Positions 23,348 through 24,016 of a stretch of 64,000 nucleotides of DNA are shown here, piece after piece. This DNA comes from Escherichia coli. GTDB lineage: Bacteria > Pseudomonadota > Gammaproteobacteria > Enterobacterales > Enterobacteriaceae. A model generated the notes under the pieces. That model saw only the letters and a program-made list of their open reading frames with translations, was not told the DNA's origin and searched no databases. The DNA lies in the NCBI RefSeq assembly GCF_965641715.1, contig NZ_OZ282453.1. One strand, given 5' to 3'. Every line of letters starts with the position of its first letter. The first letter of the stretch is position 1. Made by a program: the position numbers and the translations under genes.

Positions 23348-24016
23348 ATGAGTGAACAAATCAAACAGGATATCGATCTGATTGAGATTTTATTTTATCT
23401 GAAGAAAAAGATTCGTGTTATCCTTTTTATTATGGTTATCTGTATGGCAATGGTGCTGTTGTTTCTGTATATCAATAAAGACAATATAAAAGTGAGTTAC
23501 AGCCTAAAAATAAATCAGACAACACCAGGCATACTTGTTAACTGTGATAGCAATAATAACTTTGCCTGTCAGACCACAATGACTGAAGATGTTATTCAGC
23601 GAATTACTACATTTTTTCACACCAGCCCAGATGTCAAGAACAGAGAAATAAAGCTGGAATGGTCAGGAGATAAGAGAGATTTACCAACTGCTGAAGCGGA
23701 AATATCTCGCGTGCAGGCGTCTATTATCAAATGGTATGCGTCAGAATATCATAATGGCAGGCAAGTTCTCGATGAGATACAAACGCCTTCAGCAATTAAC
23801 AGTGAGCTTTATACAAAAATGATATACCTGACCAGGAACTGGTCATTGTATCCGAACGGTGATGGCTGTGTAACTATAAGCTCACCAGAAATAAAAAATA
23901 AATACCCTGCTGCCATTTGCCTGGCTCTGGGATTTTTTCTAAGCATTGTAATTTCTGTAATGTTTTGCCTTGTCAAAAAAATGGTAGATGAATACCAACA
24001 AAACTCTGGTCAGTAA
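23348..24016 (+). CDS. ykgH: Bitopic inner-membrane protein with Wzz-like N-terminus
   Basis: 222 aa; hydrophobic helices near both termini; N-terminal DIDLIEILFYLKKK resembles the polysaccharide co-polymerase signature; AT-rich. Confidence 0.75.
   Translation: MSEQIKQDIDLIEILFYLKKKIRVILFIMVICMAMVLLFLYINKDNIKVSYSLKINQTTPGILVNCDSNNNFACQTTMTEDVIQRITTFFHTSPDVKNREIKLEWSGDKRDLPTAEAEISRVQASIIKWYASEYHNGRQVLDEIQTPSAINSELYTKMIYLTRNWSLYPNGDGCVTISSPEIKNKYPAAICLALGFFLSIVISVMFCLVKKMVDEYQQNSGQ

Follow-up and report, generated by a model that had tools for sequence, protein, structure and literature searches.

What kind of protein does the ykgH gene of Escherichia coli encode, and on what might it act? YkgH is one of the remaining E. 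coli K-12 proteins of unknown function; the literature mentions its gene mostly as a neutral integration site, and we found no paper addressing its function. The copy analysed here lies in a 64,000-nucleotide stretch of E. coli contig NZ_OZ282453.1 (the window), for which a preliminary description made from the sequence had likened the 222-amino acid (aa) product to a miniature polysaccharide co-polymerase (PCP) of the Wzz type, the proteins that determine how long surface polysaccharide chains grow. Our analysis supports this likeness, via a profile of the YkgH family and hhalign comparison, not via a direct database match. We consider homology of YkgH to the PCPs, together with a PCP fold, highly probable; sequence comparison and structural model alike would make YkgH a remote, size-reduced variant within the PCP (Wzz-like) superfamily.

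Probable relatedness of YkgH to polysaccharide co-polymerases

The YkgH family was assembled from an exhaustive HMMER scan over 1.8 billion representative proteins, a profile search and a scan of species-representative genomes. A word-indexed protein search retrieved Escherichia and Citrobacter members only; Citrobacter relatives were added by the profile search, Kosakonia and Enterobacter relatives by the species-representative scan, and the HMMER scan returned full-length YkgH relatives of 211-229 aa at 18-32% identity. Full-length identity to YkgH is 28-30% for paralogs found on plasmids and 18-21% for Citrobacter members. The family spans at least nine lineages sharing 18-48% identity, all of them Enterobacteriaceae. 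Invariant residues in an alignment of 16 sequences are D10, K21, I25, F39, P60, C66, C74, W129, Y186 and L194. The length between the two transmembrane (TM) segments is 140-145 aa throughout; a length so fixed across divergent lineages indicates that the small size is old and conserved rather than the outcome of a recent deletion.

Searched against curated Wzz and PCP models, the Wzz likeness was borne out by relatives of YkgH and not by YkgH itself, which scored below the cutoffs of Pfam Wzz (PF02706; 20.2 bits, cutoff 25.5; residues 8-50 on profile positions 2-44 of 91), Pfam GNVR (PF13807; 10.6 bits, cutoff 27.7; residues 150-212 on positions 15-82), NCBIfam CpsC (TIGR01006; E=0.0047, 16.4 bits, cutoff 296; residues 6-39 only) and NCBIfam WzzB (E=0.037, cutoff 267 bits; N-terminus only). 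Across the family, Pfam Wzz scores range from 15 to 22 bits, no member reaching the gathering score; seven of the ten members tested matched Wzz, each of them over profile positions 2 to ~40. The WzzB (NF012015) and FepE (NF007699) models, whose cutoffs are 267 and 300 bits, gave 12-25 bits over the N-terminal ~45 residues only, and the top NCBIfam match of every member is the N-terminus of WzzB or FepE. GNVR was matched at E≤1 in all 10 members tested, three of which pass its Pfam cutoff (P0088 with 39.3 bits, P0059 with 33.2 and the protein of plasmid pYLMB53b with 30.4). As P0059 also matches YkgH over its full length (E=2e-26), the link between YkgH and the PCPs is transitive. PGAP calls the plasmid paralog a 'GNVR domain-containing protein' and UniRef names a Citrobacter member 'Tyrosine kinase G-rich domain-containing protein'; both are automatic domain labels and no more. 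Matches to DUF6520, sub-threshold at E=5.5e-4 and seen in 3 of 10 members, and to phage holins (E≥0.014) were rejected as noise driven by the TM segments.

A phmmer search of the Protein Data Bank (PDB) with the YkgH sequence alone returned only the TM helix of PsaI. The family profile, run against 177,635 PDB sequences, first retrieved full-length WzzB (6rbg, E=3-4e-4) and next FepE; in the 6rbg match the N- and C-terminal segments are collinear, the N-terminal part covering WzzB 14-57. The family profile was then aligned by hhalign with an alignment of the K-12 PCP-1 proteins WzzB, WzzE and FepE, using as controls column shuffles that keep composition and segment position. The full profile scored 38.4 (E=1.1e-4), whereas the shuffles scored 15.3±2.2 (maximum 20.5, n=60) and the reversed profile 15.1. 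Residues 1-50 scored 36.8 (E=6.7e-6, probability 85%; shuffles 12.1±1.8), and residues 170-222, which align with PCP-1 TM2, scored 27.1 (E=7.5e-4; shuffles 13.3±2.4). The motif preceding the first TM helix (residues 1-23) by itself scored 22.2 (E=8.8e-4; shuffles 9.1±1.5), so the resemblance of segment DIDLIEILFYLKKKIRVILF (residues 8-27) to the conserved start of PCPs, on which the preliminary description had relied, exceeds chance. With relaxed settings, hhalign produced a single collinear alignment of YkgH 3-220 with PCP columns 19-368. The sequence signal is genuine, and it is confined to the two membrane-proximal ends.

The list of open reading frames (ORFs) and a Kyte-Doolittle hydropathy profile (19-residue windows, threshold 1.6) confirmed a 222-aa ORF with hydrophobic helices near both ends: windows above 1.6 occur only at residues ~14-45 (peak 24-42, 3.16) and ~184-214 (peak 190-208, 2.75), and both TM helices are kept in 16 of 16 family members. 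An AlphaFold2 monomer model built from 19 family sequences (mean pLDDT, the predicted local confidence, 83.7; pTM, the predicted overall fold score, 0.66) contains, in order, an N-terminal helix (11-20), TM1 (22-42), a strand (46-55), helices 60-65 and 71-86, a β-hairpin (91-108), a helix (109-144), return helices (147-165), strands (175-184) and TM2 (188-220). The predicted protomer is thus a membrane-proximal α/β base with an antiparallel helical hairpin between TM1 and TM2, and its fold best matches WzzB, Wzc, KpsE and WzzE. The top 35 Foldseek matches are exclusively PCPs, drawn from three PCP classes; alignments over 167-184 residues were obtained with PCPs only, generic matches spanning 70-120. 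In the model, the 36-residue helix 109-144 is the shortened counterpart of the long PCP helix. It is the halving of the helical hairpin that keeps the periplasmic part at 140-145 aa; the region is, as had been remarked at the outset, far shorter than in true Wzz proteins, with 145 aa against ~243 aa between the TM segments of K-12 WzzB, as read off the K-12 PCP-1 alignment.

The orientation of the protein in the membrane could be predicted in part. Lysine and arginine counts across TM2 (3.69 versus 2.19 in the family) favour a cytoplasmic C-terminus, whereas those flanking TM1 (2.75 versus 2.69) are uninformative and give no direction. C66 and C74 are invariant in 16 of 16 sequences and in most members are the sole cysteines outside the TM segments. 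Homology, the TM2 bias and the cysteine pair taken together suggest that the central domain is likely periplasmic and disulfide-stabilised, with both termini in the cytoplasm.

The ykgH locus, its relatives and their mobility

The window's ykgH lies downstream of betA and is convergent with the lutC-like ykgG (Table 1). An annotated E. coli genome of 98.8% identity shows the neighbours pdeL, betTIBA, ykgH, ykgGFE, rclRABC and fdeC; it holds no polysaccharide genes within ±9 kb of ykgH, in agreement with the preliminary description, which had seen no adjoining polysaccharide locus. The AT-richness reported there was likewise confirmed: ykgH has 36.6% GC (37.2% at third codon positions), compared with 56.8% for betA, 58.1% for betB, 52.4% for ykgG and 50.0% for the window. 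Of 5426 complete E. coli genomes, 5154 (95%) have an annotated 'protein YkgH' and 4891 a ykgH spanning at least 80% of the length, so that the gene is intact in ~90%. Between the window and two other strains, the ratio of nonsynonymous to synonymous divergence (dN/dS) of ykgH is 0.07-0.20 and its dS of 0.05-0.07 is similar to that of neighbouring genes; these values argue for vertical inheritance within E. coli under purifying selection. The gene also figures in a differential-expression table of RNA sequencing in strain UTI89 (PMC6737244). Judged by its sequence, YkgH is a functional inner-membrane protein maintained by selection.

Table 1. Features of the ykgH locus and of the predicted YkgH protein (window positions), with the neighbours of chromosomal homologs
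Feature	Position	Strand	Remarks
betA-ykgH spacer	23152..23347	+	38% GC
Terminator-like hairpin with T-run after betA	23242-23260		within betA-ykgH spacer
GCGGCA-16-TATATT element	within 23320-23347		abuts ykgH ATG
ykgH coding sequence	23348..24016	+	ATG start, 222 aa + stop; from ORF list
Residues 1-23, predicted cytoplasmic N-terminal segment	23348..23416	+	PCP-like motif (Q)DIDLIEILFYLKKK
Residues 24-42, TM helix 1	23417..23473	+	hydropathy 3.16; model helix 22-42, pLDDT >90
Residues 43-187, predicted periplasmic domain (145 aa)	23474..23908	+	
α/β base			within residues 43-187: strand 46-55, helices 60-65 and 71-86, β-hairpin 91-108
Shortened helical hairpin 109-165, then GNVR-like strand 175-184			within residues 43-187
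Codons of invariant Cys pair C66...C74	23543..23569	+	likely periplasmic disulfide
Residues 109-144, single 36-residue helix (~54 Å)	23672..23779	+	invariant W129, near-invariant Y130
Residues 188-208, TM helix 2	23909..23971	+	invariant Y186 just before; from hydropathy, hhalign, GNVR profile 15-82
Residues 209-222 + stop, short basic tail, predicted cytoplasmic	23972..24016	+	KKMVDEYQQNSGQ
Perfect 20-bp inverted repeat, 1-nt loop	24112..24152		convergent ykgH/ykgG 3' intergenic region
E. coli ykgH			between betA and ykgG
Kosakonia homolog			between autotransporter and thiM
Citrobacter homolog			between csiD-gab and PapB-like regulators
L011 homolog			between yeiW-like and setB-like genes
L012 homolog			after fimbrial operon, 606-aa Wzy_C/PglL-like protein and DsbA/ScsC-like protein

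The intergenic regions on both sides of ykgH carry further elements. In K-12, genomic SELEX (in vitro selection of protein-bound genomic fragments) located two sites in the betA-ykgH spacer, one for RpoD (σ70; GCGACA-16-TATATT) and one for H-NS (PMC3946193), and the GCGGCA-16-TATATT element of the window corresponds to this reported ykgH promoter. A consensus promoter scan upstream of ykgH found no plus-strand promoter. As the -10 hexamer ends right at the ykgH ATG, transcription would start inside the coding sequence, and the SELEX-derived element is thus only a tentative indication of the ykgH promoter and start site. In avian pathogenic E. coli (APEC), the UpaB island is inserted at the betA-ykgH junction (PMC4844996). 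Downstream, the arms of the inverted repeat read CTGTAAATATCCTGGCATTA and TAATGCCAGGATATTTACAG; neither strand has a T-run after the repeat, which consequently is not a canonical intrinsic terminator. The 3' untranslated region of ykgH was a candidate small RNA in a RIL-seq study, northern verification of which failed (PMC8175672).

Relatives elsewhere share the composition of ykgH and none of its surroundings. All family members are markedly AT-rich (28-38% GC) in host DNA of ~50% GC; every one of them stands alone, in a location of its own. In two Kosakonia loci, an autotransporter of ~1610 aa (AC_1 and β-domain; L003 1213-6039, L019 1738-6570) is encoded ~1.4 kb upstream of the YkgH-like gene. 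The metagenome contig L012 (1-11744, ~45% GC) carries chaperone-usher fimbrial genes, an RVT_1 reverse transcriptase, Wzy_C/PglL-like and ScsC/DsbA-like genes and the YkgH-like gene, followed on the opposite strand by an ADP-ribosyltransferase resembling Enterotoxin_a and Pertussis-S1. The relative closest to E. coli YkgH (L016 280-1098; 50-58% aa and 67% nucleotide identity) is split into two ORFs, 134 and 137 aa long, and may be a pseudogene; it was rejected as a syntenic counterpart, its context being unlike betA/ykgG. Truncated ykgH variants also exist in databases. Two short contigs, one of 256 bp labelled Nocardioides malaquae (L018) and one of 1.35 kb labelled as an Erysipelotrichia metagenome-assembled genome (L020), hold either ykgH (95% identical) or a paralog of the plasmid type; contamination, or ColE1 plasmid DNA that was misbinned, is the most likely source of these copies.

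The family extends to mobile elements. A tblastn search of 72,556 plasmids detected YkgH paralogs on ~41 small plasmids of 3.0-9.6 kb from eight genera (Escherichia, Salmonella, Shigella, Klebsiella, Enterobacter, Citrobacter, Kluyvera and Leclercia). These paralogs have 220-224 aa, are ~28-30% identical to YkgH and share 72-100% identity among themselves. Their plasmids are of the ColE1 type, with RNAI at the Rfam gathering threshold and Rop, MbeB/MbeD and MobC present, and would normally be called cryptic; the paralog lies directly beside the replication origin and is the only conserved non-backbone gene. Five plasmid loci (L023, L024, L025, L026 and L027) and a metagenome contig (L004) were examined. 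An unannotated 198-aa ORF on pSMS35_3 was dismissed as a second cargo gene, being of low complexity and not conserved across plasmids. The 3.6-kb ColE1 plasmid pDW18-2 of Kluyvera intermedia (L024) carries at 2641-2713 a tRNA-like sequence whose score with the Rfam tRNA model, 66.7 bits, lies well above the gathering score. Null searches led us to drop phage ancestry and a role in defence as leading ideas: tblastn gave no match in any of 50,697 phage genomes, PHROGs nothing below E=0.046, the BFVD library of viral structures nothing at E≤0.001, and the PADLOC defence models no match for YkgH or the plasmid proteins.

The literature found pairs no 'GNVR domain' with plasmids, two surveys of ColE1 plasmids make no mention of such cargo, and we found no publication linking YkgH, the labelled paralogs or their plasmids to PCP function. 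A coherent family of small PCP-like proteins, comprising ykgH and ColE1 cargo, thus appears undescribed in the searchable literature, the domain label on some paralogs being pre-existing.

Proposed function and its alternatives

Taken as a whole, the explanation we favour, and regard as reasonably probable, is that YkgH is a remote small relative of the PCPs that would form rings and modulate a host enzyme acting on undecaprenyl-pyrophosphate-linked (Und-PP) glycans. The specific functional step, an action on host glycan chain length, is put forward more tentatively. YkgH would insert with both termini in the cytoplasm and its disulfide-stabilised domain in the periplasm, assemble into a PCP-like ring through its conserved N-terminal and TM parts, and work in trans on an Und-PP-glycan enzyme of the host, be it WzyE, an O-antigen Wzy polymerase or a ligase of the WaaL/PglL type. 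As expected of a smaller periplasmic chamber, it may make the chains of O-antigen or enterobacterial common antigen (ECA) shorter or upset their length distribution, whether by serving as an alternative co-polymerase or by entering host Wzz rings and poisoning them. When one gene is all the cargo of a 3-kb plasmid found in eight genera, its product must rely on machinery common to all of them; ECA WzyE/WzzE is universal in Enterobacterales, and Wzz proteins function with heterologous O-antigen Wzy enzymes. The parts conserved in the YkgH family are those that true Wzz uses for oligomerisation and Wzy contact: Wzz octamerises through its cytoplasmic parts, and TM2 is implicated in contact with Wzy (PMC12004945). 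According to the current model, the glycan grows until the periplasmic lumen of Wzz is full, whereupon chain growth stops (PMC12004945). A natural Wzz-like barrel of half length would be a ready test of this model, which predicts very short modes or lost modality. The analysis provides a protein of unknown function with a concrete, testable assignment. The plasmid paralogs, for their part, would supply a function for widespread small ColE1 plasmids taken to be 'cryptic' and would extend plasmid-borne chain-length control from its single known precedent (pHS-2 of Shigella) to eight genera, which could matter for sensitivity to phages and colicins, for serum resistance and for vaccines based on O-antigen.

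A bolder extension, which we hold to be rather unlikely, sees the YkgH family as mobile single-gene 'mini-co-polymerases' that would join the conserved O-antigen or ECA Wzy/Wzz machinery of any enterobacterium they enter and reset its surface glycan length, as a short-chamber ring or a poison subunit of host Wzz octamers. Such a role could explain their persistence as sole ColE1 cargo, for instance through altered susceptibility to phages, colicins or serum, and one copy would have been adopted by E. coli as a core gene, ykgH, with H-NS controlling it.

Several observations weigh against an assignment of YkgH to the PCPs and to glycan chain-length control. YkgH itself falls below every curated Wzz and GNVR cutoff, and pairwise BLASTP with K-12 WzzB gives a meaningless 13-residue match (E=0.88). 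Its central domain (43-187) shows no PCP-1 signal (hhalign 13.3, shuffles 11.1±1.4). The Pro/Gly-rich TM2 motif of WzzB, WzzE and FepE is not kept in the family: among the residues invariant in this K-12 trio (P284, P287, P293, G306, G307 and G312), P293 falls in the hhalign register on invariant Y186 and the GG pair on S199/I200, YkgH TM2 retaining only a small-xxx-small pattern (G195...S199). Given this TM2, the short hairpin, the invariant cysteine pair and the failure to pass any curated Wzz model, we did not file YkgH as a Wzz/PCP-1 protein. Polysaccharide genes are absent beside the homolog in E. coli, Kosakonia, Citrobacter, L011 and the plasmids. The sole exception to the missing pathway genes is the Wzy_C/PglL-like gene two genes upstream in L012, an adjacency that may be coincidental, since the GC content of the homolog drops independently of its neighbours. 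The missing linkage is only weakly diagnostic, as wzzB, fepE and wzz(pHS-2) are likewise unlinked from wzy (PMC12004945). Furthermore, K-12 retains ykgH though it makes no O-antigen, and mutant phenotypes found amount to one, a mild change on Congo red, the Keio ykgH mutant being 'light red' (PMC5745457); the literature mentioning ykgH yielded no published chain-length data.

The strongest competitor, itself fairly improbable in our judgement, accepts the PCP fold and has it co-opted for a non-polysaccharide role, the PCP-like parts serving membrane insertion and oligomerisation only. YkgH would then be a small envelope scaffold engaged in phage, colicin or plasmid exclusion, in adhesin biogenesis or in envelope-stress signalling. 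Such a role agrees with the lack of adjoining polysaccharide genes on plasmids and throughout six chromosomal contexts, with a central domain devoid of PCP sequence signal and the loss of the TM2 Pro/Gly motif, with a deep divergence within one bacterial family that resembles the divergence of conflict genes, and with a ykgH single-nucleotide polymorphism in an L-form line of E. coli (bioRxiv 10.1101/2024.11.06.622226). Adhesins also recur as neighbours (the Kosakonia autotransporter, the APEC UpaB island, the Citrobacter PapB-like regulators and the L012 fimbrial operon), but they differ in kind, and their adjacency in Kosakonia and APEC may be either meaningful or a mere consequence of shared AT-rich, H-NS-bound islands. 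The null results with defence models, phage families, phage genomes and viral structures speak against this role, and so do the conserved parts of YkgH, which are exactly those that Wzz employs for self-assembly and contact with Wzy.

Other explanations fare worse. A modulator of the PCP-2b type (CpsC, CapA, Wzd; ~220-270 aa), whose tail would activate a tyrosine kinase, would have the same size and two-TM layout as YkgH, weak TIGR01006 matches exist at the N-terminus (E=0.0047 for YkgH, 0.016 for P0053), and GNVR is itself named 'G-rich domain on putative tyrosine kinase', the Citrobacter member being named accordingly in UniRef. Yet 16 bits against a cutoff of 296, over residues 6-39 only, is very little, and a stand-alone kinase gene is absent beside every family member and on every plasmid examined. 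The E. coli tyrosine kinases Wzc and Etk, moreover, carry their own fused PCP domains. Finally, the YkgH tail has ~14 residues, whereas CapA's C-terminal cytoplasmic domain is needed for CapB activation (PMC4340800), and we deem this type of function very unlikely. Equally remote is chance or convergence, by which YkgH would be an unrelated two-TM protein with a generic ferredoxin-like α/β domain: the hhalign signal vanishes on shuffling or reversal, the matches at the two ends occupy equivalent PCP positions in collinear order, three members pass a curated Pfam threshold, and both the long structural alignments and the entire Foldseek top 35 are restricted to PCPs. Least credible of all is a decaying remnant, a PCP gene drifting after an internal deletion. 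The gene is indeed short, AT-rich and apparently H-NS-bound, and the truncated variants and the split L016 relative might be read as decay, but the inter-TM length and 10 invariant residues are held across at least nine lineages of low identity, dN/dS is low, most complete E. coli genomes keep ykgH intact, and the family gene is maintained as sole cargo on multicopy plasmids.

Comparison with known co-polymerases

Among characterised PCPs, the PCP-3 protein KpsE (8TSH) and the PCP-2a module of Wzc (7NHR, 9R62) share no significant sequence similarity with YkgH beyond TM2, and YkgH has no KpsMT, Wza or kinase gene nearby. The Gram-positive PCP-2b proteins (CpsC, CapA and Wzd; TIGR01006) resemble YkgH in overall size, two-TM layout and N-terminal motif, the matches being weak. 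Unlike them, YkgH has no partner tyrosine-kinase gene and a very short tail, only its first ~35 residues match, and its family is Gram-negative, confined to Enterobacteriaceae.

The closest parallels are with PCP-1 (WzzB, WzzE and FepE/Wzz(pHS-2); 6RBG, 8BHW, 9SKI), from which YkgH differs at specific points. It has 222 aa compared with 326-377 aa (326 aa for K-12 WzzB), and its long helix counts 36 residues, whereas in Wzz structures this helix is roughly twice as long. The TM2 motif P-x2-P-x5-P...GG-x4-G of the three K-12 PCP-1 proteins is not kept in YkgH, while the YkgH family has an invariant cysteine pair and no cysteine column is invariant in the K-12 trio. PCP-1 proteins and YkgH nonetheless have in common two terminal TM helices, an (E/D)IDLxxLxxxL-basic motif before TM1 and the same succession of α/β base, up-and-down helical hairpin, β-strand and TM2. 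Their genes are alike in that wzzB, fepE, wzz(pHS-2) and ykgH all lie outside polysaccharide operons, and Wzz(pHS-2), encoded on the 3-kb plasmid pHS-2 according to a 2025 review (PMC12004945), resembles the plasmid paralogs of YkgH in being carried by a small plasmid and offers a precedent for their action in trans.

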